Notes: a model not told the origin generated them from the sequence alone. Counted from the stretch's first letter, positions 3,801-21,012 are shown. The stretch: DNA of 32,000 nt from Cyanobacteria bacterium J06621_8 (GCA_038524995.1 JBCBIE010000022.1:243-32242); one strand, 5' to 3'. Made by a program: numbers and translations.

Positions 3801-5737
3801 AGCTGTAGCTGTTCCTGCGCCTGTTCTTTCTGACCTTGGTTGCTGGTTAATAATTTAGCCAAAGCCTGGATCGGATTCTTTCCTGGGCGAAAACAGCCCA
3901 ACCACCAGCGATCGCTACCAGGAATCTGCTTTCCCTGCCTCAGCTTGGCTAGTAATCCCGCCTGCACCGCTGAAGATTTACCGCTACCAGAAGCCCCCAC
4001 CACCGCAAGACTGCTTTGATGAGAAAGCTGATTGAGCAACTTTTGCACCAACGCTTCACGACCATAAAAATATGCCGCGCTATCTTCGTTAAATGCCTGC
4101 AACCCCATGTAGGGACAGATTCCCAGATCTAATACGGGTTGCCGACTCTTACTAACGCCATTCCTAATCGTTAGCAGTTCAATCACCCCTTGAGTTCCCG
4201 ATAACCAGACCTGGGGCTTAATTTTACTTCCTGCTAATGCAACCTGTAGCTGGCTGATCCAGGCTGCGATGGGCAATCCTACTTCTGAATGATCATTTTG
4301 TAGGGTTTGTAATACAGTATCGGCAAACTGCTGTGGATTATCCTGAGGGGAACTAGCGGCGATTAAACATTGCCCCCGATCTGTTGCTAGCTGTAAATCT
4401 TCAATCCATTCCCCTAGATTATCTTCCCCAAGGCAGTCTAAAATTACAATCTGTTGATTAGCCTGAGATTGCCGCAAAATTTTTCTCAGCCACGAGCGGG
4501 ATAGATAAATATTGTCCTGCAATAGTAGCCAAGATTCTCCAGTATCACTGGTTTCTAGCTTACCCCTTAGATAAAGTAAAGCTGTACTGATGTTAGTTTC
4601 TGCTGGCTGCGTCTGAAGACAATCGGCGATCGCCTCTTGGACTTTTGACCAAGGCTCATTAGTCTGGGGAAAATATCTTAAATTAAAGTTACCTGCATTT
4701 TGTAGGATCTGACTTAGGGCAAGAGTAGTACTATTGGCTTTAAATCCTCCATCCACTATCAATGCCTGACGGGGACTAGTTTCCAGCTTATCCTCAGCCC
4801 GTTTCCCCAGGATAACTTTACCAAAGCCTTCTACAATTCGCTTGGGAGTCTGGAGAGGGAATTCCGACTGAAGCTTATTTTCTCCCCGACTACTTTTTTG
4901 CTGATTAATCAGGCGGATTTGCTGATTGGTTTTATCAATATAGCGAAGAGTTTGATGATAGACATATTGATAAAGGGCATCCGCCTCAATTACTCCTTGG
5001 GTATCTGCTGCTTCTCCCCTCAAGCCCCGCATCAGGTAATAGGTGAATACTCCATGTCCCAATTCAGGAAATTCCCACGACTGCTGAGTTTGATCGCAGG
5101 ATAACAGAGCATAAAAACCCTTACTTTCCGCCGCCTGATGCCGCAATACTTCCACCAGTTGCGAACTAGGATCTGCCAGGGAATTCCCCGTCCCCCGTAA
5201 AGTCATCCCGCCGCTATGGCAGGCATCTAGCCAAACAAGCTGTTGACTAGCCGCACAGTTACTTAACTGTGCCAACAAATTATTTAAAGGTAGTCCTGTA
5301 GCGATTAAATCTTCCGTTTGGGTATCCGCCAAACACAATACTACCTGTTGCGTCTTAGTTTCTAAAATCCCGTGTCCTGAAAAGTAAAACAGGATCGTAT
5401 CCTTGACCTTAGCAGAACTCAAAATATGCTGAATACTCTTTTGTACCGCTGCTAATTGGGGGGCAGAATCAACAAAATCATGATGAATAATCACCTCTTT
5501 ATTCTCAAAGCTAGCAGTAGCTTCCGTTAAGGCTTCTCCCAACCCCTGACAATCCACCGCTGAATACTGCAACGACGATAGATGATGGCGATCATGATAC
5601 TGATTGACTCCCACCAGCAAGATCCAAAGTTTGGCAGGTTCAATAGTAGTTTGGGGTTTGGTACGAATTTTAGCGCGGGGACACATCGCTGATGCTAGGT
5701 GGTGGTTAAAGGTCAGTATATCTTTATAGGTTTGCAC
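854..5737 (-). CDS. Multidomain STAND protein: caspase-like C14 peptidase, degenerate second caspase-like domain, P-loop NTPase, hydrophobic segment, about 10 WD40 repeats
   Basis: Caspase His/Cys dyad motifs are FYFSGHG (His codon about 5392-5394) and WLDACHSGG (Cys codon 5220-5222). The pre-P-loop motif CPYMGLQAFNEDSAAYFYGRE is followed by Walker A GASGSGKSS and Walker B VLVIDQFEELF. A hydrophobic stretch LTATALGVLGLAATAFGVGAY lies at about 2625-2690. It is followed by repeated GH..(D/S)G..(A/S)S.D.T(I/V)K(I/L/V)W WD40 units down to the C-terminus. Confidence 0.85.
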   Translation of the reverse strand: MQTYKDILTFNHHLASAMCPRAKIRTKPQTTIEPAKLWILLVGVNQYHDRHHLSSLQYSAVDCQGLGEALTEATASFENKEVIIHHDFVDSAPQLAAVQKSIQHILSSAKVKDTILFYFSGHGILETKTQQVVLCLADTQTEDLIATGLPLNNLLAQLSNCAASQQLVWLDACHSGGMTLRGTGNSLADPSSQLVEVLRHQAAESKGFYALLSCDQTQQSWEFPELGHGVFTYYLMRGLRGEAADTQGVIEADALYQYVYHQTLRYIDKTNQQIRLINQQKSSRGENKLQSEFPLQTPKRIVEGFGKVILGKRAEDKLETSPRQALIVDGGFKANSTTLALSQILQNAGNFNLRYFPQTNEPWSKVQEAIADCLQTQPAETNISTALLYLRGKLETSDTGESWLLLQDNIYLSRSWLRKILRQSQANQQIVILDCLGEDNLGEWIEDLQLATDRGQCLIAASSPQDNPQQFADTVLQTLQNDHSEVGLPIAAWISQLQVALAGSKIKPQVWLSGTQGVIELLTIRNGVSKSRQPVLDLGICPYMGLQAFNEDSAAYFYGREALVQKLLNQLSHQSSLAVVGASGSGKSSAVQAGLLAKLRQGKQIPGSDRWWLGCFRPGKNPIQALAKLLTSNQGQKEQAQEQLQLEGLLYQGVEGFVRWLRTRTEEMLVLVIDQFEELFTLAGESERREFMELILGALKYAGDRFKLVLTIRADFVAACLETPELARILQQNSVLVPPYLTEADYRSAIVKPAVQVGLSVEPGLVEILLQDLDRSAGDLPLLQFALQQLWERRQQGKLTLNAYQELGGIKGALERQAQAVYENLDTQSQDCARWIFLNLTQLGEGTEDTRRRVTKSDLIVAKYPAPLVNQTLRVLTDAKLLVINLDNGNSIGQSRSASEPDEDDELFLEAMRQEATVEVVHEILIRHWSSLRWWLEENRSRLRSQRQIEQAAVLWQHQDQQDDFLLRGVRLGEAEEIFTNYNDELSDTAKEFVSCCIDARLAAEKAAKQRLRKAQLTATALGVLGLAATAFGVGAYRQQVITKVENIANLSAVSEAQLLSNQQLESLTTSVTAGKQLEKINGLGKLLVGGDLWHKTKYQATATLQQSLYGTQELNRLQGHSQRVNLASISDDGQLFATSSDDGTVKVWQQDGTLLKTLTQEEAQSDPIAIKVNANQQQISNPGLKSPEHALSNAKGTYAIAPDNDRLIQLNSADQVLMSYEHPESVSNFSLSTDEKLLATATVDGKIHIWNQDGILQQTLNGHVGEVTDLKFMPSQDTGDRYRLISTGVDKTARIWQVFNRYQEATGIYSIAVAPSANDNYAAADWHGKVNLWQTNADGTQKVVNSWQAHEDNISQIKYSPDGKLIATASWDKTIKLWDAASGQLISTLQKHHGGVNSITFTPDGQTLISASEDKTIKVWNLNNQPQVVATLEEHTDSIKTITISPDGKLIASGSYDNTIKIWDLQGQLLQTIDAHDLAITTLAFTPDSNILASASWDNSVKLWSINNSGKSSDLLHTLTAHQDGVTTLSFNNDGSMLATGSGDRTIKIWHTPTGELIKNLRGHTSQINTLAFSSNNQSIISGEEQQGLFSWNLDLDNLIEKGCDRLSDYLATNPNVKESEQQLCQ

Positions 5738-6185: not shown

Positions 6186-8981
6186 ATGTCGGATAAATCT
6201 GGGATCAAGGTTGAAAATCGTCGTTCTCTTCTGCAAAAAGAACTCAAGGTAGATTTTAAATCTCTGTTATTGACTTTGGGCAAAAGTGCCGTCAACATCG
6301 GTTTTTTGCAGTTTGATGATCTGGCTGAGAATGGTGTTGAGCTTCTAGAGTCTTTGGGGTTAGAGACGAAAGCGGAAGAAATTGCTGGTTTATTAATAGT
6401 GCGATCGCTTAAACAGGCTATCATCAATCTTAACGAGGAATATATTGAGTCTTTTCGCCCAGAACAGATAGAAAATATCCCAGCCAGCCTCAAGGATTTT
6501 TCTATCACCTTAAGTGATGCTATCGGTGAGGGTGAGTTAACTATTGATAGTGACTTTTTCGCTCATCCAGAACAGTTAGCCCTTGTCTCGGATATTAAAT
6601 TAGCTTACGGTGATTGGTTACAAGATTTTGTTAACCGCCCTGTTGATGCAGAAAAGGTTAGCAGTAGCTTTCCTGCCTATTTTGTCGAGGCGCTTAATGA
6701 GGAATGGTTAAGCCGCAGCGATGAATATGCGGTATTGAGGGAAACCCTCGATACTCCCTTTACTCAGGCTAATAAGAGACAACAGCAATGGTTACGTTAT
6801 CGAGCATGGCTGCAAAAGCAAATTGAAGAACCCATGTTTGCTGAAGCTTTTAGCTTGAATGAGATTTACGTACCGTTAAGAGCTTATTATGAGCGAAAAA
6901 ATCAGGAAAAAGAAAATGAATCAGTTGACGGAACATTAGATTTACATAGAGAGTATCAAAGAGTAGCGGTAAGACTTGATCAAGCCCTCCAGTCATGGCT
7001 GGATAAAAATAATCGCGATGATGCGATTCGCTTGATCACTGGTAGCCCAGGAAGCGGAAAGTCTTCCTCCTGCAAGATATTTGCCGCCGAACAAGCAAGA
7101 AAAAGAGATATTAATACCTTATTTATTCCTCTGCATAAATTTAGTCATGGGGAGGATTTAGTAAAAGCGATCAATGAATTTGCTCAAACTGACTGTTTTC
7201 TCTCTGGTAATTTAATCGCCAGAGATAACGAAGATTTACGGTTATTAATTATCTTTGATGGCTTGGATGAGCTATCAATGCAGGGCAAAATTGCCGAAAA
7301 TGCCGCTAAAGACTTTGTGGAAGCAGTAAAATTTCTAGTCTCGCAGTTTAATACCCATAAAACTCGACTACAGGTAATTATTAGCGGGCGGGAAGTCGTA
7401 GTACAGGCTAACCGTAACCAACGTCAACTCCATCAGCTACTTTATTTATTACCCTACGTGTTGTCTGATAGTGAATACAACATCAAGAAGTATGTTGATG
7501 AGGCAAATATTCTGAAATCAGATCAACGACAAACCTGGTGGCAAAATTACGGCAGGGCTAAAGGGAAAGAATACGATGGTTTACCGCCAGCGTTAGATCA
7601 AGATAACTTAGTGGAAATCACCACCCAACCCCTGCTTAACTACCTGATTGCCCTGAGTTACGAACGAGAGAAAATAGAGTTTACTGCGGATACTAATCTG
7701 AATGAGATTTATGCGGATTTGTTAGAGGCAGTTTATGACAGAAAGTATGAAAAACATGGTTATTTACCCCTAGAAAATATTGAACTAGAGCAATTTATCG
7801 GGATTTTAGAGGAAATTGCCCTATCTTGCTGGCATGGCAACGGCAGAACTACCACCATCAAGGAAATTAAGTCTCACTGCGACAACAGCGGTTTGGGACA
7901 GGTTTTAAAGGAATTTCAGGCTAGTTTTGAGCAAGATTCTAAAGGCTGCATCACTCGCTTACTTGCCGCATTTTATTTCCGAGAAAGTGGAGGGCTGCGA
8001 GATAGGGATAAAACCTTTGAATTTACCCACAAGAGTTTTCGCGAATATCTTACCGCCAAGCGCATTATTGAGGAAGTCAAAAATATCCATGAAGAGTTAG
8101 CAGCCAGAAGCAAGAACTTCCGCAAGGGGATTAATGAAACCGAGGCTTTAGTTCGCTGGGCTAAACTATGTGGACTTTCGGCGATGGATGAATATCTGTT
8201 TAGTTTTGTTTGGGACGAAATTGAATTGGAATATGCCCAAGATCCTCAATTAATTAAAGACTGGCAAAAAATGCTTTGTCATTTGATTGAGGTGATGTTA
8301 GTCAACGGTATGCCCATGGAGAGTATCGAACCTCGTCCCAATTTCCAGTCGGAAATGTTCCAGTCTCGCAACGCCGAAGAGTCATTACTAGCGGTATTAA
8401 ACGCCTGCGCTAGAATTACTAGGGAAATTTCTCATATTAAATGGCATTCTCCTACAGCTTTTGGTTCTTGGATTGCTCGATTACAGCCACAGAGAGAAGC
8501 ACCGAAAAATACTCTAGCATTTAGCTGTTTAAGCTGGCTGAATCTCGATAATTGTATGCTTGACTTGAGAGATTTTTATGCAGCTAATTTTGAATATAGC
8601 TCTTTAGTCAAATCAGATCTACAGGTAGCAGTTTTATTAAATGCTAATCTTGCGCGGGCTAATCTTGCGCGGGCTAATCTTGCAGGGGCTCGTCTTGCGC
8701 GGGCTAATCTTGTAGGGGCTCATCTTGCAGGGGCTCATCTTGCGCGGGCTCATCTTGCAGGGGCTCATCTTGCAGGGGCTCATCTTGAGGCGGTTGATCT
8801 TGCGCGGGCTGATCTTGAGGGGGCTAATCTTGAGGGAGCTAATCTTGAGGGGGCTAATCTTCAGAGAGCTAATCTTAATGGGGCTATTCTTCAAGGAGCT
8901 AATCTTAATGGGGCTATTCTTAAGAATACAATTCTAGAAGGTCAAGATATTGCTAAAATCACTGGCGTTAAAAATGAATAA
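6186..8981 (+). CDS. NACHT-type STAND NTPase with C-terminal pentapeptide-repeat domain and an unassigned N-terminal module
   Basis: Walker A is ITGSPGSGKSS and the NACHT-style Walker B is LLIIFDGLDEL. The C-terminus is a run of A(N/H/D)L(A/E)(R/G) pentapeptides (ANLARANLARANLAGARLARANLVGAHLAGAHL...). ATG start at 6186. Confidence 0.85.
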   Translation: MSDKSGIKVENRRSLLQKELKVDFKSLLLTLGKSAVNIGFLQFDDLAENGVELLESLGLETKAEEIAGLLIVRSLKQAIINLNEEYIESFRPEQIENIPASLKDFSITLSDAIGEGELTIDSDFFAHPEQLALVSDIKLAYGDWLQDFVNRPVDAEKVSSSFPAYFVEALNEEWLSRSDEYAVLRETLDTPFTQANKRQQQWLRYRAWLQKQIEEPMFAEAFSLNEIYVPLRAYYERKNQEKENESVDGTLDLHREYQRVAVRLDQALQSWLDKNNRDDAIRLITGSPGSGKSSSCKIFAAEQARKRDINTLFIPLHKFSHGEDLVKAINEFAQTDCFLSGNLIARDNEDLRLLIIFDGLDELSMQGKIAENAAKDFVEAVKFLVSQFNTHKTRLQVIISGREVVVQANRNQRQLHQLLYLLPYVLSDSEYNIKKYVDEANILKSDQRQTWWQNYGRAKGKEYDGLPPALDQDNLVEITTQPLLNYLIALSYEREKIEFTADTNLNEIYADLLEAVYDRKYEKHGYLPLENIELEQFIGILEEIALSCWHGNGRTTTIKEIKSHCDNSGLGQVLKEFQASFEQDSKGCITRLLAAFYFRESGGLRDRDKTFEFTHKSFREYLTAKRIIEEVKNIHEELAARSKNFRKGINETEALVRWAKLCGLSAMDEYLFSFVWDEIELEYAQDPQLIKDWQKMLCHLIEVMLVNGMPMESIEPRPNFQSEMFQSRNAEESLLAVLNACARITREISHIKWHSPTAFGSWIARLQPQREAPKNTLAFSCLSWLNLDNCMLDLRDFYAANFEYSSLVKSDLQVAVLLNANLARANLARANLAGARLARANLVGAHLAGAHLARAHLAGAHLAGAHLEAVDLARADLEGANLEGANLEGANLQRANLNGAILQGANLNGAILKNTILEGQDIAKITGVKNE
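8643..8927 (+). repeat. In-frame tandem repeat, 19 units of 15 bp (consensus GCTAATCTTGCGCGG), encoding the pentapeptide-repeat domain
   Basis: Read directly. Units start at 8643, 8658, 8673 and so on to 8913. Several neighbouring units are identical or differ by 1-3 nt, including at third codon positions. Confidence 0.9.
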
Positions 8982-9295
8982 TAAATAATTATTTAGCCTT
9001 TTAAATTATCTCAGTAAAGCGCATTTTCTTTGATGTTGCGATTCCACTTATGGTTTATGCGATGCTCGCATTTATGGTTTAAATAAAGGCATTACCTAGC
9101 TATAGATCTATGATAATTAACCTTGGGAAATTATTAGAATCTAAAAAAACTAATGGCTATTGGTGACAAGTTCAGAAACTTACCCATTAGTCAACTACTA
9201 TACATAGCATCGTATTTATTACGTCTGATGTGAATTAAAAATGTCTAAATATTTATGTTTGTTCTATCTACAATTCATCTTTAGAATCAGACCTT

Positions 9296-9460
9296 AAGAC
9301 TGGGGGAACTTTTCCCCATTCGAGGACAAGCCCCCAGACCCCCCCTCGCGCGTTCCCTTGCGCCTGTCGGCGGCGCGGGGTCGCTCGTTTGTTGGGGAAG
9401 TGACGGCTTCCCCATATGCGAAGCGGTATCCTTTAGGAAGCCCCTTCGTAACTAAAGTTA
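9296..9460. repeat. GC-rich mosaic of short dispersed repeat modules in an AT-rich intergenic region
   Basis: Module A termini TCGCGCGTTCCCTTGC (9346-9361) and CGCGGGGTCGCTCGT (9374-9388) recur at 19611-19626 and 19762-19776. Module B (CATATGCGAAGCGGTATCCTTTAGGAAG, about 9412-9440) recurs in inverted orientation at about 19709-19758. GGGGAA/TTCCCC hairpins lie at 9301-9318 and 9392-9413. Confidence 0.7.
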
Positions 9461-9722
9461 AGCCATAGATTAATCCTTCTATTTAAAGCTGACTTATGCG
9501 GCATTAGCAACATGAAGCTATTGCTTCGCGCTGTGGTAGTTGGTTATGGGATTTGTTTTATCTGCTAGTCTTTATTGAAAATAACAAATTTAATTCACAT
9601 TAAGCGTTTATTTTATAACTCTATATGTAGAAGAAATTAAAGATGACATGGCGATCGCATTATCAATTGGAAAGTTGGCTATAAATATTTTAAAAGCTAA
9701 AGGCTAATGGCTAATAGCTTTC

Positions 9723-11372: not shown

Positions 11373-11582
11373 GGACATAGCTTTTCAAAGATCTCAATCA
11401 CAGGTTGCTTTAAATCCCTAGCGTATAATTAGTGTAATAGACGATACAGTTATTGTTTTTTTACAAAGTCTCGTATCTTCTGTTACAATTCTTATTAAGT
11501 CAAAGAATAATGCTAAGTTGCTTTTGTTAAGGAACGCGCAACTAAGATTTTTTCCAGACTTATAACAACAACAACTTTCAAC

Positions 11583-11617
11583 AGCCAACTATGGAACAGC
11601 CTGGTTGGCGTTTTTTT
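11583..11617 (+). terminator. Intrinsic-terminator-like hairpin followed by T7
   Basis: GCCAAC(T) at 11584-11590 pairs with (G)GTTGGC at 11603-11609, with a 12-nt loop. It is followed by CG and TTTTTTT (11611-11617). The T-run is present only on the plus strand. No upstream plus-strand CDS is present. Confidence 0.45.
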
Positions 11618-11657
11618 AATTGGTTTCAAGTCTTCATTTACATAACTGACTTAAACT

Positions 11658-12353
11658 ATGCTTTGTATCGGTCATCGTGGTGCTATGGGTCACGAACCAG
11701 AGAATACCTTGCGCTCCATCCAGAAAGCCTTATCTCTTGGGGTTGATGTGGTTGAAGTTGACGTTTATAACGTTGAGAGACGGCTGGTAGTGATTCATGA
11801 CCGTGATTTAGGGCGAACTACCAACGGTACGGGATATGTTGAGGAGTATAGTTTTGCGGATTTGCGGGCTCTGGATGCAGGAAAAGGAGAGAAGATTCCC
11901 ACTCTGGAAGAGGTATTTAATACAGTCAATCGTCAGGCTGTGATTGATATTGAATTGAAAGGCAATAATACTGCTGAATTAGTCGTAGATTTAATTCGGG
12001 AATATCTAAACCAGGGTTGGTCTTGGTCAGATTTTATTGTTTCTTCCTTTAACCATGAAGAATTACACCAGGTAAAGTCTATCTGTGCCGAGATTAAGAC
12101 AGGGATGCTAATTTATGGTTTACCTTGGCGATATCTGGCTATTTTGCAGCAGTTACGGGCTGAAGTTCTCATCGCCAGCATAGATTTTGTCAACCCAGAT
12201 CTGATTGCCTCAGCGCATCGGTTGGGGGTTCCTGTGTGGATTTATACCGTCAATCAAGCTAAGGAAATTGATCGTCTGAGAGGATTAGGGGTTGATGGCA
12301 TAGTTACCAATTACCCTGAAAGAGTTCTTGGTTCAATAAGTAATAGTCATTGA
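11658..12353 (+). CDS. Glycerophosphodiester phosphodiesterase (GDPD family)
   Basis: N-terminal GDPD signature IGHRGAMGHEPENTLRSIQKALSLGVDVVEVDV. The size is typical of UgpQ-like enzymes. Confidence 0.85.
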   Translation: MLCIGHRGAMGHEPENTLRSIQKALSLGVDVVEVDVYNVERRLVVIHDRDLGRTTNGTGYVEEYSFADLRALDAGKGEKIPTLEEVFNTVNRQAVIDIELKGNNTAELVVDLIREYLNQGWSWSDFIVSSFNHEELHQVKSICAEIKTGMLIYGLPWRYLAILQQLRAEVLIASIDFVNPDLIASAHRLGVPVWIYTVNQAKEIDRLRGLGVDGIVTNYPERVLGSISNSH

Positions 12354-12357
12354 TCAA

Positions 12358-14124
12358 TTAATCTAAAGGCTGCATTAACCCCATTAATTTCCGCTTGCGA
12401 CCATGAACTTCCACGAGCTTGGCTCGATAGTCCGACCATTCTTGAGGGCGATTCGCTGTTAAATATGCCTGACGTACTCGTCTGAGCCAGGAGATAGCTG
12501 ACTCATAATATTTTGCCTTTCCCTCATTCATAATTGCTTCTGCTCTGGGAGTAGCGTTGTTGATCACCCAATCAGGATTAGTCTCCATTGACGCATCCAT
12601 CACTCTTTGAATCAGACGATGCCGATAGTCACCCACATTTTCTACTACTGCGATCGCCTGTTTAATCATCCCCTCATCCAGATGAATGTCTACTTTAGCG
12701 GCTGCTGAATTCCAACTATCATCCGCTGCTAACGTCCCCAGTAGTTCCCCCTTCAGATTTGACCAATTATCACCCGCTAGCTGCGCCACTTGACGATAAT
12801 CTGCAAAATTGGGACTGGCTTGAAAAGCTTTGACCTTAGCCTTAACTGCCGTAACCTGGTCATCCAATTCCAGGGCAATTTCGCTCGTCCAGGTAGCCAA
12901 ATCATATTGACAACTTCCAGGTAATCCTAACCCTGCTCTGGCGATCGCCAGAGCTTCAACTTGAGCATTTTGTTCAGTTACTAAGCATCTAGATAATGCC
13001 AGCGCATCCTCCTTATTAGCTAGTAAAGACTGCGCCGCCGTCATCGCTTCGCTGATCCTTCCCAAACTTACTAACTTAGTCAAATATTCAACTACCTGTC
13101 CCGATGCTTCGGCAAAATAAAGATATTCCTCCAGCCGTCCTTGCCGTTCTAAAATATCAAGTCTGATTGCCGCTAAATCCTCAGCATAGGGTGGTGCTTC
13201 TCCTGTCCAGATATTAGAACTCACATTACCCTGAAGTATCCGCTTGAGAGCAGGATTTGACCAACCTTGTTCCAAAGCCGCCAATAAGATGTCAAAACAA
13301 TTCCCCCAGCTATCACGCCAGTACTCAAAATTAACCTGGAGATCTACCTTGTCCGCCTCATCAAGTTTTCCATTAAGAATCGTCTCGCACCAGACACGAC
13401 TCAATAGATAAGCGACATCATCATAATCAACGCCATACTCATCAACTAAATCCCAGTTTTCCAAGCAGGATTCAGTAATAGCAGTTAACATGGCGATCGC
13501 ATTATCAGAATCACCCTGTTGGTTATAGTTACTAGCCTCCTCGATCAGGCTACAAATCTCTTCCGTCGCTGGATCTTCTTCCCCTCCGTATTCATAATGA
13601 CGCACCGAGTCTTCCAGAATATATCTGACTTGGGATCTGATGGCGTTAACATTGACGGTAACTTTTTTCTGGGGTGAACTGCCTTCGGTGGTAACTACTA
13701 CAGGGGGTGCTAGGCGATCTGTAATTCTCTCAATATCATTAACCAGTTCAGGCTTTTTAGCTGCTAACTGCTGAATGAGACTTTGAGTTTGGATTTCGTT
13801 AAGACGATCTAGAATCTCCTCTAAAGTAGCGCGCACTTGAATATGCTCAGGTTCTCGCAAACAAAATAGCAGAGTAGCAACGATATGTTTACAGTAACCA
13901 CCCCAGTCATAAGGACAAGTACAGCTAGCCGTGAGGATGTCATGATCAGCAAACTCAATACTGACAGAATAAAGACTGCTCCCAATAACTTCGGCGCTGA
14001 TTAAATTGCCTCGCTGATTAACCTGTCTTACACAACCTTGGTCGTAATATGATTCTCCCCGTTGCCAAGACTTATGAGTAGCGGATTGACGAATCAGTTC
14101 GAGAGTAAGCTGGGTAATCGACAT
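12358..14124 (-). CDS. SWIM zinc-finger domain protein with long helical C-terminal region
   Basis: SWIM CxC...CxH motif ASCTCPYDWGGYCKHIVATLL near the N-terminus. The rest is unassigned. Confidence 0.7.
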   Translation of the reverse strand: MSITQLTLELIRQSATHKSWQRGESYYDQGCVRQVNQRGNLISAEVIGSSLYSVSIEFADHDILTASCTCPYDWGGYCKHIVATLLFCLREPEHIQVRATLEEILDRLNEIQTQSLIQQLAAKKPELVNDIERITDRLAPPVVVTTEGSSPQKKVTVNVNAIRSQVRYILEDSVRHYEYGGEEDPATEEICSLIEEASNYNQQGDSDNAIAMLTAITESCLENWDLVDEYGVDYDDVAYLLSRVWCETILNGKLDEADKVDLQVNFEYWRDSWGNCFDILLAALEQGWSNPALKRILQGNVSSNIWTGEAPPYAEDLAAIRLDILERQGRLEEYLYFAEASGQVVEYLTKLVSLGRISEAMTAAQSLLANKEDALALSRCLVTEQNAQVEALAIARAGLGLPGSCQYDLATWTSEIALELDDQVTAVKAKVKAFQASPNFADYRQVAQLAGDNWSNLKGELLGTLAADDSWNSAAAKVDIHLDEGMIKQAIAVVENVGDYRHRLIQRVMDASMETNPDWVINNATPRAEAIMNEGKAKYYESAISWLRRVRQAYLTANRPQEWSDYRAKLVEVHGRKRKLMGLMQPLD

Positions 14125-14216
14125 TGCTTTTGCAGGATGGCTTTTGTTTCATCTTACAGCGAGGGAATATATAGCCGTACAACTTTAATTTAGGACAACT
14201 TTTATGTATCTGCTCG

Positions 14217-14250
14217 TAAGTAATAAGTAATGAGTAATAAGTAATAAGTG
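14217..14250. repeat. Heptamer tandem repeat (TAAGTAA x about 5), STRR-like
   Basis: Read directly: TAAGTAATAAGTAATGAGTAATAAGTAATAAGTG. It lies about 95 bp upstream of the SWIM gene start. Confidence 0.9.
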
Positions 14251-14351
14251 TTCTAATCTAAGTCTGTGTTGCTCAATCAAATAATGTCCTAATCTAGATC
14301 CGTAATGCTATACATGCTAATTTTTAGGTAACAGTTAACTCTAAGAAAGAA

Positions 14352-14855
14352 TCACAAACTACGGTTAATTGCTTCAATAAAATCGGCTTCAATAGTCAAA
14401 GGACTTTCAGCTATCCCCCGATTAACAAAAGTAACCAAATCCTTTGCAACCAACTTCGGCAAACAAATACTATCCGCAACTTCCTGATAGCCAGCATCCT
14501 CCAAGCGATAAAAAGTAAGCTGGTTATTCTGCCAAAACCAAACCTCTGGCACGCCTAAAATGCAGTACTTCTCTAAATCTTCTATGCCACCACTGGAAAA
14601 AATAACCTCAATTGTCAGATCGGGAATATCTTTATCTGTATTAAAAGCATAGGATACATCAGGCTCTTTACCAACTAGAGGGTTCTTCTTCAGCGTAGTA
14701 GAGCCACGAGGAAAGTATGTGAGTTTAAACTGACGACAATAAGCAGCAATCAAAATTGGGAAGATTTGAGCAATTTTTTCATGGTTAACACTGGGAGACA
14801 TCAGAGTAATAACTCCATTGAGGAAAGACGTTAGAGGATATCTGAAAAGTCTCAA
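14352..14855 (-). pseudogene. 5'-truncated duplicate of the Uma2-family gene at 18014-18619
   Basis: The encoded residues from NGVITLMSPS to EAINRS are identical to the full-length copy. The N-terminal ~55 residues of the full copy are replaced by 11 unrelated codons (MRLFRYPLTSF) after a TTG. Confidence 0.8.
14362..14835. repeat. Left copy of a 474-bp direct repeat
   Basis: 14362-14816 is identical base for base to 18021-18475 (455 bp). Three mismatches follow in the next 19 bp, then the sequences diverge completely. There is frayed partial identity for about 12 bp beyond the other end. Confidence 0.9.
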
Positions 14856-14999
14856 TTGCTACTTTATAGCCAATCCTATCCAACGGAATCATAATAGTTT
14901 CAACATTGTTATCTAGGTCTGAAATCTGATTTAGAGGTGACAAAATTTACTTTTCAGATGACCTCTCAGAATTCATCTAGTTCAAAAAATAACTCTCTG

Positions 15000-15089
15000 A
15001 TGCCTAAGCTGCCAGCCTTTAGAGCCAAACAACTAATCTCTGTGCTTGAAAAAATTGGTATTGAGATAGTATCGCGATCTCTACTATGA
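15000..15089 (+). pseudogene. hicA: HicA/YcfA-like toxin gene fragment (N-terminal ~27 residues only)
   Basis: MPKLPAFRAKQLISVLEKIGIEIVSRS matches the characteristic HicA-family N-terminus (MPKLP..(K/R)..I..LEK.GF..V). The conserved downstream GSH region is absent and a stop follows after 29 codons. An in-frame ATG at 14958 could extend it. Confidence 0.55.
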
Positions 15090-15214
15090 ATTAATTGGAT
15101 GTGTAAAGAATTACAAAATATCATTACAAAAATACTAGCCCAAGTGTTGAAGACACAAGATTAGATAGAATCAAATTACTTAAGCTATGTTTTAAACAAA
15201 TCTAGTCTAAAGCT

Positions 15215-15670
15215 ATGGTGGACTTCTTTATAAGCTATAATTCAGCAGACAAAGATTGGGCGGAATGGATTGCATTCATACTGGAAGAGAATCAGTATAC
15301 TACTGTGATCCAAGTTTGGGATTTTAGACCTGGCTCTAATTTTGCACTAGAAATGCAGAAAGCAGCTTCAGATGCAAACAAAACAATTATTGTTTTATCA
15401 AATAATTATCTTAAATCTAGGTATACTCAGCCCGAATGGGCAGCAGCTTTTGCAGACGATCCCACAGGGAATCAAAGAAAGTTAATTCCAGTAAAAGTAG
15501 AAGAATGCAGCCCCAATGGATTGTTAGATAAAATTGTTCACATTAATATTGCTCATCTAGATTCTAAGGAAGCAGAGAAAGCTCTACTTAGTGGTCTAAA
15601 AGAAGATGTAAGACCTAAAACAAAAGTTAAGTTTCCTGGAAAAAAAAAGTCTGTGATAAAAAGTGCTTAG
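15215..15670 (+). CDS. TIR-domain protein (151 aa in the zero frame)
   Basis: Bacterial TIR hallmarks are present: FFISYNSADKDWAEWIAFILE, IIVLSNNYLKSRYTQPEWAAAF, with a candidate catalytic Glu in QPEW (residue 74). The zero-frame stop TAG is at 15668-15670. Confidence 0.85.
   Translation: MVDFFISYNSADKDWAEWIAFILEENQYTTVIQVWDFRPGSNFALEMQKAASDANKTIIVLSNNYLKSRYTQPEWAAAFADDPTGNQRKLIPVKVEECSPNGLLDKIVHINIAHLDSKEAEKALLSGLKEDVRPKTKVKFPGKKKSVIKSA
15640..15649 (+). promoter_or_regulatory. A9 homopolymer containing an in-phase A_AAA_AAG heptamer (candidate -1 frameshift / transcriptional slippage / phase-variation site)
   Basis: Zero-frame codons are GGA AAA AAA AAG TCT. The heptamer at 15643-15649 is in the X_XXY_YYZ phase. 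The -1 frame (GTC at 15649) is open from 15631 and runs into the NB-ARC ORF. Confidence 0.6.
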
Positions 15671-15720
15671 AGAATTTAAAGCACAAAAATTGCGAAGTCT
15701 TAATTGGTAGACAAAATGAA

Positions 15721-17673
15721 TTGAAATTGCTACTTAAAAGAATTTCTCCCAGCTATACTTTACATATGAATGAGGTAGTTGGAGTTGGCGGTTTGGGTAA
15801 AACAGCTCTGGTATTAGAAGTAGCATACCTATGTAAAAAAGCAAAAGAAGAAGGACTTGAGCAGCTAAATGGACTCAATATCCCCATTTTTGATGCTATT
15901 ATTTTTAGCTCTGCAAAGACAAAAAAACTAGAATCAAGAGGGATTGTAGAGATATCTTCAGAAGCCAGAGATAAATGTTTGCAAGATATATTTCGCACTA
16001 TTGCCGCTACTTTAGATACTCCAATCATTAATCAGGCTACTGCATCAAATCAGCTATCTCAAGTTTATAAATGTTTGGATAATCAACAAACTTTGTTGAT
16101 TATTGATAATATGGAGACCTTAGAAAGGAGTGAAAAAGAGCGAGTTTATGAATTTTTAGGTGATGTGCCTCCAACTACACAAGTAGTCATAACTACTAGG
16201 GAAAAAATTGGCTATCTCTCTATTACTTTAGATGAGCTGTCAAAAGAAGATAGTCTAGAGCTAATTAAGCAAGAAGCTTCTCTTAAAAATATCAATATAT
16301 CGTTTACAGAAGCTACTAAACTGTATAAAAGATTTAAAGGAATTCCTTTAGCATTAAAATATACTATAGGAAAAAAGGCTTCTGGTAGGAGTGTAAACTT
16401 TGACGCTCCATTAGATGATAATATTGCTCAGTTTTGCTTTGAAGACTCATTATCATCTATTAGGGGTAACTACTCTTATAAACTGTTAATGGCTTTAGCA
16501 ATTTTTCCTGGCGATCCTTTAAAAGATTTTTTAGTTGAGGTTGCTGGCTTATCCTCTATCGACCCTGATAAAATTAGCAAAGAATTAGATGAGCTTAAAG
16601 TATTGAATTTAGTTAGTGAATATGATGGAAGGTATCATCTACTAACTATGACCAAAGAGTATACAAGAATAGAGATAGGTAAGAATCAAGAGTTTGAAGA
16701 TATAGCTAGAGAAAGACTTGTTAACCGTTATATTTTATTTACTCAAAAACATGGTGGCTTAGATTGGGAGGAATGGTACGAAGATTCTAAGCAAATCCGA
16801 AATGAATTAGAGAATATAAAGGGAATACTTGACTGGTGTGCTGTAAAAAATCGCTATGAAGATGTTAAAGCAATCTGGAAAAATATAAGTAATTATATAG
16901 ATTTATTAGGTGACTGGCAACTTTGTCTTTATTGGACTGACTGGCTAATTCAAAAATCAATTAAGCGTTCTGAACTAGATACATATATTAGTTTATTAGC
17001 TAGCAAAGCCTGGATTCAAATTTTGATGGGAGGTGAAACAATTCATGATGCCAGAAATCTTTTAATGACTGCTTGGAAGTTAAAGAGTCACTCCAGTGAT
17101 TTGACAAAAACTGAATTAGCTAAAAACTTAGCATTTTTAGACTTAAACCATAAACATCACTATAGGCAATCTATTAGATGGTTAAATCATGCAGAGGGTT
17201 TTTTGAAGCTTACAAAACTTGCCAAAAAAGAGTATAAACGATATGAAATATTGTTTGCATATTATCGCGGTAGGGTGGAGTATTTTCAAAAGAACTTTGA
17301 AATAGCAAAAGAACATTTTGAGCAAGTTATCAAACTTGGAGAAGAAATCAAATGGCAACGTTATTCTAATTATGCTAAACATAGGCTTGGAGACGTAGCC
17401 TTGGAATTAGGTCATTTAGAAATAGCAAGGCAACTTTTAGAAACTGCTTATATTATCGCTAAAAATAACTCAGAGCCTAGAAGGGTATTTTTATGTTTAA
17501 TATCCAAAGCAAAACTAGAAAAAAAATCTGGAAATCTTGAAAAAGCTTGTAAATTAGAAGCTGAAGCTAAACTTCTTAAAGCTAATAATCCTGTCAGTAC
17601 TAGGGATGAAGAAGATTTTAAATTATTACATGATGATTTAGCTTGTGATTTTAGACAATTTGAAACTGTCTAA
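15721..17673 (+). CDS. NB-ARC (AP-ATPase clade) STAND NTPase with C-terminal TPR-like repeats. It has no credible start of its own.
   Basis: P-loop GVGGLGKTAL, Walker B LLIIDNME, VVITTRE, and GLPL-type FKGIPLALKY. The C-terminal ~300 aa is helical and TPR-like. The frame is open from 15631 and already encodes conserved pre-P-loop sequence (VLIGRQNELKLLLKRI). The only start-like codon before the P-loop is the TTG at 15721. The first ATG (15766) lies 5 codons before the P-loop. Confidence 0.8.
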   Translation: MKLLLKRISPSYTLHMNEVVGVGGLGKTALVLEVAYLCKKAKEEGLEQLNGLNIPIFDAIIFSSAKTKKLESRGIVEISSEARDKCLQDIFRTIAATLDTPIINQATASNQLSQVYKCLDNQQTLLIIDNMETLERSEKERVYEFLGDVPPTTQVVITTREKIGYLSITLDELSKEDSLELIKQEASLKNINISFTEATKLYKRFKGIPLALKYTIGKKASGRSVNFDAPLDDNIAQFCFEDSLSSIRGNYSYKLLMALAIFPGDPLKDFLVEVAGLSSIDPDKISKELDELKVLNLVSEYDGRYHLLTMTKEYTRIEIGKNQEFEDIARERLVNRYILFTQKHGGLDWEEWYEDSKQIRNELENIKGILDWCAVKNRYEDVKAIWKNISNYIDLLGDWQLCLYWTDWLIQKSIKRSELDTYISLLASKAWIQILMGGETIHDARNLLMTAWKLKSHSSDLTKTELAKNLAFLDLNHKHHYRQSIRWLNHAEGFLKLTKLAKKEYKRYEILFAYYRGRVEYFQKNFEIAKEHFEQVIKLGEEIKWQRYSNYAKHRLGDVALELGHLEIARQLLETAYIIAKNNSEPRRVFLCLISKAKLEKKSGNLEKACKLEAEAKLLKANNPVSTRDEEDFKLLHDDLACDFRQFETV

Positions 17674-17883
17674 ATGATGATTGAGTTTACGTGAAGCGTA
17701 GAGAAGCACAGCTCTTAAATCATCTATTTCTAAATTGGGAAGCTCCTCCAAAATCTGCTCGGAACTTAACTCTGCTGCAAACAGATCTAGAACATCAGAT
17801 ACTCGAATCCTCATCCCGCGAATACATGGACGACCACCACATTGTCTGGGGTTTACTGTAATTCGTTCAAGTAGCTTTGACAT
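17638..17883 (-). CDS. DUF433-domain protein (antitoxin-like), with no partner toxin gene
   Basis: ITVNPRQCGGRPCIRGMRIRVSDVLDLFAAELSSEQILEELPNLEIDDLRAVLLYA is a typical DUF433 core. Its last 36 nt overlap the 3' end of the convergent NB-ARC ORF. Confidence 0.75.
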   Translation of the reverse strand: MSKLLERITVNPRQCGGRPCIRGMRIRVSDVLDLFAAELSSEQILEELPNLEIDDLRAVLLYASRKLNHHLDSFKLSKITS

Positions 17884-18013
17884 TTGTAGAAAGCTCCATT
17901 ATAGGTTCTTAATCCTTCTGACTAGGCATATAGTCACACTTCATATTATCCCAAACAGACGAGTTACAAAATAGAAGATGTTCCCTCTTAAAACTACCTC
18001 TGAGACAAAATTA

Positions 18014-18619
18014 CTAACTGCGGTTAATTGCTTCAATAAAATCGGCTTCAATAGTCAAAGGACTTTCAGCTATCCCCCGATTAACAAAAGTAACCAAATC
18101 CTTTGCAACCAACTTCGGCAAACAAATACTATCCGCAACTTCCTGATAGCCAGCATCCTCCAAGCGATAAAAAGTAAGCTGGTTATTCTGCCAAAACCAA
18201 ACCTCTGGCACGCCTAAAATGCAGTACTTCTCTAAATCTTCTATGCCACCACTGGAAAAAATAACCTCAATTGTCAGATCGGGAATATCTTTATCTGTAT
18301 TAAAAGCATAGGATACATCAGGCTCTTTACCAACTAGAGGGTTCTTCTTCAGCGTAGTAGAGCCACGAGGAAAGTATGTGAGTTTAAACTGACGACAATA
18401 AGCAGCAATCAAAATTGGGAAGATTTGAGCAATTTTTTCATGGTTAACACTGGGAGACATCAGAGTAATAACTCCGTTGAAGAAAGACGCTAGATAGCCT
18501 GGATATTCATCAGAAAGTAATTGTTCGTAATCAGCCCAATCCATACCAGCTAAACGAAGCGTCTGATCTTGCTGATTTAGGCGATCGCTATTTATCGGGA
18601 GGTTGGCATTGATTAACAT
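18014..18619 (-). CDS. Uma2-family (DUF820) putative endonuclease, full length
   Basis: 201-aa ORF with an ATG start. A HIP1 site lies in the unique 5' part (about 18585-18592). The 3' 474 bp are duplicated at 14362-14835. Confidence 0.85.
   Translation of the reverse strand: MLINANLPINSDRLNQQDQTLRLAGMDWADYEQLLSDEYPGYLASFFNGVITLMSPSVNHEKIAQIFPILIAAYCRQFKLTYFPRGSTTLKKNPLVGKEPDVSYAFNTDKDIPDLTIEVIFSSGGIEDLEKYCILGVPEVWFWQNNQLTFYRLEDAGYQEVADSICLPKLVAKDLVTFVNRGIAESPLTIEADFIEAINRS
18021..18494. repeat. Right copy of the 474-bp direct repeat
   Basis: See the left copy. Same orientation, offset 3659 bp. Confidence 0.9.
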
Positions 18620-18771
18620 TACTAATTTGGTAGAAAATAAATAATTAAGTTTATTCTAGAATAATCGTAAATAGACAGTGGATAGTTAACGATTATTCGC
18701 TAGATTATTGATTACTTATGCTGGCTAATATAGTAGCTGTACGATCACTATTAAACTATTATTTATTGAAT

Positions 18772-19269
18772 CTAATTAAGCTCTAGCTTGGCTCGCCATT
18801 CCTGTACTTTTTTATCCGCTTCAGCTTTGGACATACTCCATCTATTTAGTTGATAGGGAATATTAACTTGACCATTATCAAATACTAATCTAACGAAATA
18901 GCTTGGTATATTACTGTCTACACCGTAATCAGCTACTTTTTTGACCTTCAAAAAGCCTTCTGATGAACCTTGATAGGTAAAATTTTTTCGCAAAGATTTT
19001 CTATGTAATTTGATGTGTTTGGCTCGAACATTATAAATAAAGACGCTTTTTGAAAATGATACGTCTAACAGTGCGTAAACTATAATCACAACAGACAAGA
19101 CAACTCCGCCCTTGATGAATGCAGGCAGATCTAAGGTTAAGCACCAGATAATTCCTAGAAGGAAAAGGAAAAGTAGGATTACTGTGAGAAATTTATCCCC
19201 TGTTATTGTAAGTATTTTTCCTTTAAAAGACACTTTGTTGAAAAATGTTGAGAAACCTGTTTTACCCAT
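18772..19269 (-). CDS. Hypothetical membrane protein (two predicted TM helices plus a small C-terminal domain)
   Basis: Hydrophobic stretches are FLTVILLFLFLLGIIWCLTL and GGVVLSVVIIVYALL. No family recognised. AT-rich and HIP1-free. Confidence 0.5.
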   Translation of the reverse strand: MGKTGFSTFFNKVSFKGKILTITGDKFLTVILLFLFLLGIIWCLTLDLPAFIKGGVVLSVVIIVYALLDVSFSKSVFIYNVRAKHIKLHRKSLRKNFTYQGSSEGFLKVKKVADYGVDSNIPSYFVRLVFDNGQVNIPYQLNRWSMSKAEADKKVQEWRAKLELN

Positions 19270-19335
19270 GTTTGAATTTACATGTCAATAGCTATATGGC
19301 TTCTCAAGCATAAACGCTAAATCATTATTTGTTCT

Positions 19336-19527
19336 CTAAATTGCTTCATCAGTATCATCTAGTAGTTCAATGGTGGTGCGCAGGAGTCGGTTTTCATAAC
19401 GGCGATCTCGTCTACGTCCTTTAGCTTTCCCTGCTCGTTTGCTACTTCGACCATCTACAACGATTTCATCTAAATGCTGTGCATCATCTAGGTTGTTCCA
19501 GCCAGTTTGTGGTGTACGCTTACCCAT
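19336..19527 (-). CDS. Small basic hypothetical protein (63 aa)
   Basis: ORF only. It contains a Lys/Arg-rich segment KRAGKAKGRRRDRRYENR. No family recognised. Confidence 0.3.
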   Translation of the reverse strand: MGKRTPQTGWNNLDDAQHLDEIVVDGRSSKRAGKAKGRRRDRRYENRLLRTTIELLDDTDEAI

Positions 19528-19609
19528 TTATTTCATCAATTCTAATTTTATTACTTTTTATTAATTATTGTAAAAAAATCAGCCTTGATTATCCACATAA
19601 ATGCTCAAT

Positions 19610-19777
19610 CTCGCGCGTTCCCTTGCCCCCATTCGTCCCGTCGGGGCGGGATAATAAGGGTAAACGTCTTTCGCCGATATTATGCCCCTGTCCTAAAGGA
19701 TTCCTAAAGGATATATTATGCCCTTATGGTACACCTTCGGATAACCGCTACGCATATGGTACGCGGGGTCGCTCGTC
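19610..19777. mobile_element. 168-bp MITE-like composite short dispersed repeat flanked by a 10-bp direct duplication
   Basis: AATGCTCAAT occurs at 19600-19609 and again at 19778-19787, immediately abutting the element. The element termini match module A at 9346-9388. The interior carries module B, itself interrupted by a ~31-bp segment flanked by GGATA. The interior also has duplicated CCTAAAGGA and ATTATGCCC motifs. Confidence 0.5.
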
Positions 19778-19866
19778 AATGCTCAATGTTTAAATTCCAT
19801 AGCTGAGACTTAAAACACTACATTTATCCTAAGTCTCAGCCTTTTCTTTGTTGGAAAAATCTGCGT

Positions 19867-21012
19867 CTAGTGATGATGGTGGCTATGACTATGTTCCGCC
19901 TGAACTTTAGCTAGTTGAGGATTAACAGTATTGCCAGATTCCCCTAGCAAAGCTTCAATTTGGGGACGAGCCCATTCGGCTACCATGTGGAGAAATTCTG
20001 GGTTACTGTTGACGCAGGGCATACGGACAAAGGTAACATCCTGATGCTTATGCTGGAGATGATGAATAATATGATCTACATCCAGCAGAGTTTCATGGTT
20101 TTCTGTAGCAAAGCCAATGGGCATCATGACAATGGAAGTCGCGCCCAACTCCATTAAATTCTTCGCGGCTAGCTTAACGTTTGGCTGTGTCCATTCAATC
20201 AGCGGCGTATCATGGTTGAGCCAGCCGACGGAAATGAGGGGATATTTATCAATTAGCTGTTCTCTCACTAACTCATATAAAGCCTGGCTTTCGTCAATTC
20301 CTGAAGTAAAGCCTTTAGCCTTATGAGGACAACCATGATTCATCAGGATAATGCCAATTTGGGAAGCTAAATGACCCTGGGCTAGTTCGGCTTCAATTTT
20401 CTGTTCCACCATCTGCGCTAGGAGCTTGATGTATTCTGGCTGATTAAAGAATGAGGGAATATAGCGGGAACTTTTTAACCAGTGGCTCTCTCCTTCTGCT
20501 TGTTTGGCTAAAGCTTTGTTCACCTGTTCTACGGCAATACCGCTGGTAAAAATTGAGTCAACCACCAGCAGAGGATAAATTAAAATTTTCTCAAAACCTT
20601 GCTCTTTAATTTCTGCTAATACCTGTTCAGGTAGAAAGGGAGCGCAAAAGTTAAAGGATTTAAATACTTTGACCTGATTTCCCCAGGTTTCCTGTAATTC
20701 TCGCTCGATTCCTACTCTCTGTTCTTCAAAAATAGCGTTGTGGGGGGAAATAAAATTATCGTGCTGATGACTCCATTCATGGAGATCGAAAATGGCTAAT
20801 ACTTTGGCGATCGCTGGATAGATCCAGGTCGGTACGGGGGCAAACTTAGCCGTCAATAGGTTTAATGCCTGCTCATTATAGTTGGCAAAGTCTTCGTAAC
20901 TTTCTACCTCACCGTAGCCCATTAATAGCACCGCTACGCGATTATTTTTATTTTGCTCTGAATGATGATGTTCGTGGACTGTCGAGGTAGATTGATGAGA
21001 AATTATAACCAC
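19867..21012 (-). CDS. Ferrochelatase-family (class II chelatase) protein with His-rich N- and C-termini
   Basis: Blocks are collinear with ferrochelatase: VAVLLMGYGEVESYED, ILMNHGCPHK (metal-site His), SVGWLNHDTPLIEWTQP, MMPIGFATENHETLLDVD (conserved Glu), NSNPEFLHMV. The termini are HEHHHSE and HSHSHHHH. No C-terminal CAB/LHC-like segment is seen. Confidence 0.8.
   Translation of the reverse strand: MVIISHQSTSTVHEHHHSEQNKNNRVAVLLMGYGEVESYEDFANYNEQALNLLTAKFAPVPTWIYPAIAKVLAIFDLHEWSHQHDNFISPHNAIFEEQRVGIERELQETWGNQVKVFKSFNFCAPFLPEQVLAEIKEQGFEKILIYPLLVVDSIFTSGIAVEQVNKALAKQAEGESHWLKSSRYIPSFFNQPEYIKLLAQMVEQKIEAELAQGHLASQIGIILMNHGCPHKAKGFTSGIDESQALYELVREQLIDKYPLISVGWLNHDTPLIEWTQPNVKLAAKNLMELGATSIVMMPIGFATENHETLLDVDHIIHHLQHKHQDVTFVRMPCVNSNPEFLHMVAEWARPQIEALLGESGNTVNPQLAKVQAEHSHSHHHH

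Follow-up and report, generated by a model that had tools for sequence, protein, structure and literature searches.

Introduction

The tufA and tufB genes of Salmonella are the textbook example of concerted evolution by gene conversion. Here we analysed a 32,000-nucleotide stretch (the window) of the draft metagenome-assembled genome (MAG) of Cyanobacteria bacterium J06621_8 (GCA_038524995.1, JBCBIE010000022.1:243-32242), located on an 80,484-bp contig. In it, a full Uma2 gene (copy B) and a 5'-truncated Uma2 gene (copy A) enclose an AT-rich insert in direct orientation. A first-pass annotation, made from the sequence alone, had read this arrangement as the recent single-crossover insertion of a defence cassette, with gene conversion between older paralogues as the alternative. 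We found that the alternative accounts better for the repeat, since a perfect core lies between diverged edges. With moderate confidence, we favour gene conversion between old copies within a mosaic island assembled by several events.

As in concerted evolution of the tufA/tufB type, a block of identity changes abruptly to diverged homology at both ends. Unlike tufA and tufB, one copy is a 5'-eroded fragment, 3.2 kb of foreign-looking DNA separates the direct copies, and conversion is a process that we infer. The locus also resembles the Campbell integration of a suicide plasmid, in that full copy, cargo and truncated copy are all direct and no recombinase gene was seen in the open reading frames (ORFs) scanned. 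It differs from such an integration in its diverged repeat edges and in a mosaic cargo devoid of genes for replication or transfer, and our searches turned up no empty site and no second example. Within the cargo, one gene resembles cyanobacterial STAND/NLR-like NTPases in its TIR_2 domain, NB-ARC P-loop and TPR repeats. The nearest of those relatives are fused proteins of 818-844 amino acids; the window gene, unlike them, is split at a run of nine A residues (A9), and its STAND part matches no PADLOC model. The second cargo gene resembles the DUF433 part of DUF433-DUF5615 toxin-antitoxin-like modules, with 76-85% identity to five aligned members of its protein cluster. Unlike those modules, it has no partner in the window, and its last codons are antisense to the TIR-STAND gene.

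A perfect core within diverged homology

The Uma2-derived parts of the locus are as follows.
14336-14361, minus strand: frayed edge at the 3' end of copy A, comprising its two final codons, the stop codon and some 16 nt beyond
14352-14855, minus strand: ORF of the 5'-truncated Uma2 copy A (Pfam Uma2, 2.4e-14)
14362-14816, minus strand: core of copy A, exact over 455 bp, in the downstream, 5'-truncated Uma2
14817-14870, minus strand: 5' frayed edge of copy A (16/19 in the first 19 nt, then about 35 nt of weaker similarity with a 6-bp deletion)
17995-18020, minus strand: 3' frayed edge of copy B, counterpart of 14336-14361
18014-18619, minus strand: full Uma2 copy B, 201 amino acids (Pfam Uma2, 4.4e-16), with its core at 18021-18475
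18476-18619, minus strand: 5' part unique to copy B, with a HIP1 site at 18581

The exact direct repeat described in the first-pass annotation was reproduced: positions 14362-14816 equal 18021-18475 over 455 bp, in the same orientation and with 0 mismatches, at a spacing of 3,659 bp. Both copies pass the Pfam Uma2 model (PF05685) with scores of 59.3 and 53.6 bits against a gathering cut-off of 27. The proposed minus-strand order of full Uma2, insert, 5'-truncated Uma2 and flank is borne out by these matches. The HIP1 site in the full gene's own 5' end was confirmed as well.

We next compared the two copies beyond the core. Towards the gene's 5' end, 14817-14835 agrees with 18476-18494 at 16 of 19 positions (p<0.0002; above all shuffle and genomic controls), which upholds the three mismatches first counted there. 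Similarity had been thought to end at this point, but it continues for about 35 nt in a weaker form with a 6-bp indel, to approximately 14870 (p about 0.01); above approximately 14885, a colinear alignment gave no significant similarity between the copies. On the 3' side of the gene, a second edge that had escaped description was found, with 19 of 26 positions matching between 14336-14361 and 17995-18020 (p<=0.0004, shuffle and genomic controls). No similarity between the copies was detectable below 14336. The edges outside the perfect core thus differ by 16-27%. On its 5' side, the homology of copy A tapers off without a clean end, dropping from 84% to about 60%, with indels, before it is lost in noise. 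The divergence reaches the protein: copy A encodes SFLNGV at its edge, with the Leu found in most homologues, and copy B encodes SFFNGV.

According to profile and alignment tests, copy A lacks the recognisable first 25-40 or so Uma2 codons. We considered whether a complete but degenerate Uma2 5' end lies upstream of it and rejected this candidate: tblastn gave weak colinear traces only, an N-terminal profile hidden Markov model found nothing in 14857-14976, and local DNA alignment did not exceed chance. Judged by these comparisons, the extra 5' homology of copy A appears to extend over about 50-70 nt only.

A derived 3' extension (AAC CGY AGT T..) is carried by both window copies and is missing from the orthologues on contigs L085 and L088, indicating that copies A and B are each other's closest relatives. 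Nonetheless, these closest relatives differ at 7 of 26 positions directly beyond the core. A tract of full identity thus ends abruptly on both sides within a longer stretch of diverged homology, as gene conversion would leave it. The full gene was also compared with the same two orthologues. Its unique 5' part and its core are 86.8% and 85.9% identical to L085, and 79.9% and 74.9% identical to L088. With such near-equal similarity to the outgroups, the full Uma2 does not look like a chimera. Neither orthologue has the HIP1 site found at 18581.

The DNA between the copies

The insert contains the following features.
15000-15089, plus strand: short ORF tail, earlier called a HicA fragment, unconfirmed
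15215-17673, plus strand: TIR-NB-ARC-TPR gene (STAND, NLR-like), read as ORFs of 151 and 650 amino acids with a -1 frameshift
15215-15670, plus strand: TIR_2 ORF (Pfam, 1.7e-32)
15640-15648, plus strand: A9 run, the window's longest homopolymer and the place where the frame shifts
15721-17673, plus strand: NB-ARC/TPR ORF (Pfam NB-ARC, 6.5e-07, and TPR families)
17638-17883, minus strand: DUF433 gene, antitoxin-like, with an aberrant C-terminus (Pfam DUF433, 1.7e-22)

The TIR and NB-ARC/TPR ORFs had been annotated as two genes. Their domains were supported by Pfam, and the NB-ARC carries a GxGGxGKT P-loop, but their separation was not supported. The nearest homologues are fused TIR-NB-ARC-TPR proteins of 818 amino acids, 62% and 59% identical, and tblastn with these relatives places a switch of frame at 15643-15649, within the A9 run. 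Insertion of one A at this run restores a single ORF of 819 amino acids. The two ORFs are thus one gene of about 819 codons split by a frameshift, so that the TIR, the STAND NTPase and the repeat sensor are all present but not in one polypeptide. The run was also read identically in an independent Logan contig (L084). A 53%-identical homologue from another metagenome (L091) is likewise interrupted, in its case by another A run, located at about 1560-1575 of its contig. Frameshifts at A runs could reflect recurrent slippage, phase variation or plain decay.

More distant relatives have a caspase, trypsin, SEFIR, CHAT or HTH domain in place of the TIR, and such swapped N-terminal domains are typical of cyanobacterial NLR-like STAND proteins. 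In PADLOC, the TIR gave weak matches only (PDC-S66, bSEFIR, Aga TIR and ThsB, 1e-7 to 3e-3), and no model matched the STAND part. The TIR-STAND gene may have a role in defence; because of the frameshift, the defence cassette of the first-pass annotation is not intact.

The DUF433 gene had also been annotated, and the Pfam match supports it. Its protein falls into a cluster of 225 sequences that share >=90% identity and are typically 74 amino acids long, and it is 76-85% identical to five aligned cluster members of 74-76 amino acids. It follows the family up to residue 69. The homology then stops at about 17674-17677, adjoining the TIR-STAND stop codon (17671-17673) on the opposite strand, and the last DUF433 codons are the antisense of the TIR-STAND 3' end. 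DUF5615, the usual partner of DUF433 and paired with it in the related loci L087-L089, is missing from the window. The cluster includes members named from distant lineages, among them Schleiferia thermophila, Thermosynechococcaceae and Candidatus Obscuribacterales, a spread that suggests a very mobile module. A conserved linkage of Uma2 and DUF433 was considered and rejected; a DUF433 gene lies downstream of Uma2 in L087-L089 too, yet the DUF433 proteins have no detectable similarity.

A breakpoint at the TIR-STAND stop codon implies that the insert contains at least one internal breakpoint and at least two pieces. Homology to four TIR-STAND loci elsewhere is restricted to 15212-17652, with a different flank at each locus. 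Together with the breakpoint at about 17674 and the missing DUF5615, this is not what one contiguous piece from a single donor would look like. Two genes of the insert, DUF433 and TIR-STAND, are damaged. The HicA fragment named in the first-pass annotation found no match in Pfam or NCBIfam at loose thresholds, in the PDB or in a plasmid tblastn search; with neither a profile nor a homologue behind it, that name reflected a resemblance seen by eye.

Base composition and HIP1 sites

The insert (14836-18020) had been described as more AT-rich than its flanks, and this was confirmed by computation: its GC content is 33.5%, against a mean of 42.8% (standard deviation 2.2, minimum 38.8) in equally long windows elsewhere. 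It is the TIR/NB-ARC gene that stands out. GC content at third codon positions (GC3) is 22% in the NB-ARC/TPR ORF and 26% in the TIR ORF, against 35-47% in most other long genes of the window, and DUF433 (39.8% GC) and Uma2 (40.3% GC) are nearer to the rest. Of the 26 HIP1 sites in the window, none lies between 13493 and 18581. The reported absence of HIP1 from the insert is thus real, but its value as a foreign mark is not upheld, as 0 sites observed against 2.6-2.9 expected corresponds to P about 0.06-0.075. A second HIP1-free gap of 3.25 kb lies at 6401-9651.

Four TIR-STAND homologues on other cyanobacterial contigs have 33-40% GC against 41-47% in their flanks, and 0 HIP1 sites against 7-11 in their flanks. 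Because low GC and lack of HIP1 are common to all four, they are traits of the gene family and not a sign of recent arrival. We therefore rejected HIP1 absence, which is not significant alone and is shared by homologues elsewhere, as evidence for foreign origin. More generally, AT-richness and a lack of HIP1 can be properties of a gene family without marking a recent acquisition.

Assembly support and a near-identical genome

One structural feature was defined by comparison with another genome.
14286-14316, no strand: breakpoint at 14315/14316, where near-identical MAGs differ in structure; it lies 20 nt beyond the Uma2 homology

MAG J06558_2 is near-identical to the window, with 0-1 mismatches over kilobases. 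Its contig (L082/L168; GCA_038533795.1, JBCAYB010000095.1) runs from a TldD flank into 14315->12617 and then 18131->24422, the join between 12617 and 18131 being inverted. The joining of 14315 to the flank of a TldD/PmbA gene was seen in J06558_2 and, independently, in Logan contig L169 from run SRR22824287. L169 ends exactly 30 nt beyond the 14315 junction, at window position 14286. The 18131/12617 join has no microhomology and coincides with a 56-nt overlap to another J06558_2 contig. The boundary 12616/12617 is spanned by a Logan contig from SRR22824287 that carries two single-nucleotide polymorphisms relative to the J06558_2 contig, indicating that two versions of the segment 12617-14315 coexist in that sample. 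These differences at the island border point to structural polymorphism or assembly trouble, with real rearrangement, strain mixture and a chimeric contig as the alternatives. Their cause is the main interest that remains in this locus, given that they separate near-clonal MAGs.

Searches for an unoccupied site gave no clean example, J06558_2 showing other joins instead. Scanning a species collection with the SWIM protein encoded beside the island returned 60-64% amino acid identity at best and no synteny, and a metagenome scan with Uma2 gave 67% identity at best. Exact-protein look-ups found J06621_8, J06558_2 and short Logan contigs only; TIR and DUF433 proteins identical to those of the window are recorded from J06621_8 and one Logan run only.

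Uma2 genes as possible docking sites

The first-pass annotation also proposed that Uma2 paralogues serve as landing pads for defence cassettes. If true, this would mean that cyanobacterial defence genes move without an integrase, using an abundant gene family as portable homology. We found no second example among the loci examined: cargo between a partial and a full Uma2 was seen at none of 63 Uma2-containing loci of >=3 kb, and no Uma2 was found around the four TIR-STAND homologues. Adjacent Uma2 pairs on the same strand occur at 3 of 58 other loci. Two of these pairs are 96-98% identical, indicating that tandem Uma2 duplication or conversion occurs; both are in metagenome loci (L117, 9271-10642; L130, 3488-4867). 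At three further loci (L114, L139 and L149), direct repeats of 90-320 bp, 83-90% identical, directly flank a Uma2 gene. The literature that we searched describes Uma2 copy-number expansion (PMC9403480) and Uma2 as an accessory gene of CRISPR type III (PMC11855584), and contained nothing on Uma2 as an integration or docking site.

Origin of the two-copy arrangement

A perfect core within diverged edges indicates that the core was homogenised. Its identity consequently dates the last conversion and is silent on when the cargo arrived; perfect repeats are no clock where their edges have diverged. Two further arguments lead in the same direction. A crossover between sequences that differ as the edges do should yield reciprocal chimeras instead of two identical cores, and an incoming fragment identical to the resident gene is not expected to have diverged homology outside it. 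We therefore favour an ordinary course of events, in which the region from a 63-amino-acid gene (19336-19527) to the SWIM gene would be a small, AT-rich, structurally unstable island produced by several events. A resident full-length Uma2 would have been accompanied by a second copy in the same orientation whose 5' end eroded. RecA-type conversion, with the full copy as the likely donor and the fragment as recipient, may then have kept or made 455 bp identical, with homogenisation concentrated in the middle of the tract and decaying ends; the ends of the homology would have escaped conversion, leaving the older, true divergence visible there. Between the copies would lie at least two pieces of different origin. 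One is an antitoxin-like DUF433 gene, now without its 3' end and without a DUF5615 partner. The other is a probably horizontally mobile, single-gene TIR-NB-ARC-TPR sensor, inactivated or phase-switched by a -1 slip from A10 to A9. The second copy plausibly arose either from a tandem Uma2 pair later split by insertions or from an old Campbell-type event. The 455-bp repeats could permit deletion of the 3.66-kb segment by homologous recombination, leaving a single Uma2. So understood, the locus is an ordinary mosaic island with a new, frameshifted member of a known NLR-like family.

Several points weigh against this account. No related genome was found that has the two-copy arrangement with diverged cores, so that the age of the duplication is read from about 80 nt of edge only. 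Edges diverged by 16-27% are poor substrates for starting RecA-dependent conversion, and repeated conversion with shrinking tracts must accordingly be assumed. A Campbell-type event followed by conversion would give the same appearance. In addition, the arrangement is based on a single draft MAG contig.

The last two points lead to the other explanations. In the Campbell-type version, a circle carrying a 5'-truncated Uma2 fragment and cargo entered by one crossover without an integrase, and conversion later polished the core. The topology agrees with the single-crossover origin first proposed, since full copy, cargo and truncated copy are all direct, as that event would lay them out, and direct repeats (455 bp, 3,659-bp spacing) flank the insert. 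The claim that no integrase was involved is also in keeping with the scans, since the window has no tRNA gene and the ORFs scanned yielded neither an integrase nor a transposase domain; the search for marks of an integrase island found no tRNA or tmRNA in the 32 kb and no Rfam family in 13000-20000. The TIR-STAND gene is an outlier in GC and GC3, and proteins identical to the window's TIR and DUF433 are not recorded from near-identical MAG J06558_2, which is compatible with a presence/absence polymorphism. What does not fit is a recent single event. The repeats are neither identical throughout nor reciprocal chimeras, and one crossover cannot leave a perfect core bordered by diverged homologous sequence, which makes a second process necessary in any case. 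The 5' homology of copy A fades gradually with no sharp stop, and the cargo is a mosaic that has breakpoints inside it and genes in decay (DUF433 truncated, DUF5615 absent, TIR-STAND frameshifted). The postulated circle has no replication or transfer gene, the low GC and HIP1 absence are family traits of the gene, and the arrangement is seen at no other Uma2 or TIR-STAND locus. We consider this origin rather unlikely. Still more so is a recent segmental duplication that placed about 0.5 kb of Uma2 beside the SWIM gene through another mechanism, for instance template switching or unequal exchange, without conversion. A perfectly identical core in direct orientation is what such an event would produce, but a fresh copy should match to its ends, and here both ends have diverged, one with an indel; we regard it as highly improbable.

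The assembly itself might mislead: the true state could be an empty site plus a separate circle of 3,659 bp, or the contig could contain a false join, either at the repeat or at 14315/14316. Reads that do not reach across the repeat would give one and the same assembly graph for the integrated form and for the empty site plus circle, and the sequence comes from a MAG (contig of 80,484 bp). Independent Logan contigs (SRR22824301) span 11473-14196, 14871-15951 and 18446-19653 only, none crossing the repeat or 14197-14870. One of them, L083, ends exactly 30 nt into the core, as at a branch of an assembly graph, and J06558_2 joins 18131 to 12617 and 14315 to the TldD flank. Against this, the assembler passed through both copies in building an 80-kb contig, which suggests that more than k-mer overlap supported it, and the unique junctions of the core, on the 14817 and 18476 sides, are contained in or inferable from independent contigs. 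The diverged edges, moreover, show that there are two distinct Uma2-derived sequences, and an empty site plus circle would biologically be the same element in its excised state. An artefact therefore seems unlikely to us. A bolder idea is that the Uma2 repeats act as a recombination switch by which the TIR-STAND segment is gained and lost in near-clonal strains, Uma2 paralogues being integrase-free docking or rearrangement sites. Its traces would be the J06558_2 joins at 14315/14316 and 18130/18131 and the lack of identical TIR and DUF433 proteins there; the survey of Uma2 and TIR-STAND loci produced no parallel, and we judge the idea quite improbable.

Flanking genes and the wider window

Three further genes border the island.
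12358-14124, minus strand: SWIM gene flanking the island (Pfam SWIM, 1e-05; PADLOC PDC-S62, 3.2e-23)
18772-19269, minus strand: ORF of 165 amino acids, 34.5% GC, without family assignment, between the 63-amino-acid gene and Uma2
19336-19527, minus strand: gene of 63 amino acids, synteny anchor of the resident Uma2 (79% amino acid identity to the 64-amino-acid gene of L087-L089)

In L087-L089, whose Uma2 is 78% identical, the 64-amino-acid gene lies directly upstream of Uma2. This linkage of the small gene to Uma2 in a relative places the 5' side of the full copy within conserved surroundings. The 165-amino-acid ORF is missing from the corresponding position in L087-L089, where the 64-amino-acid gene adjoins Uma2, and it has the appearance of a further small insertion within this island. 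The full Uma2 matches the PADLOC candidate system PDC-S17 (3.1e-58). As far as such profile matches can tell, the flanking full Uma2 and SWIM genes may themselves be defence-related. Upstream of the SWIM gene, 14220-14248 is a short, imperfect heptamer tandem repeat (GTAATAA/GTAATGA), and Logan contig L081 stops at 14196, just short of it.

A third Uma2 paralogue lies at 6-587, tail to tail with a gene for a 1,627-amino-acid nSTAND1-WD40 protein (854-5737). It was rejected as a recombination partner of the repeat, with merely 29% amino acid identity over 76 residues. A gene for a 931-amino-acid NNH3/NACHT-like pentapeptide-repeat protein (6186-8981) is located beside the nSTAND1-WD40 gene. The 32-kb window contains three STAND NTPase genes and three Uma2 sequences in total.

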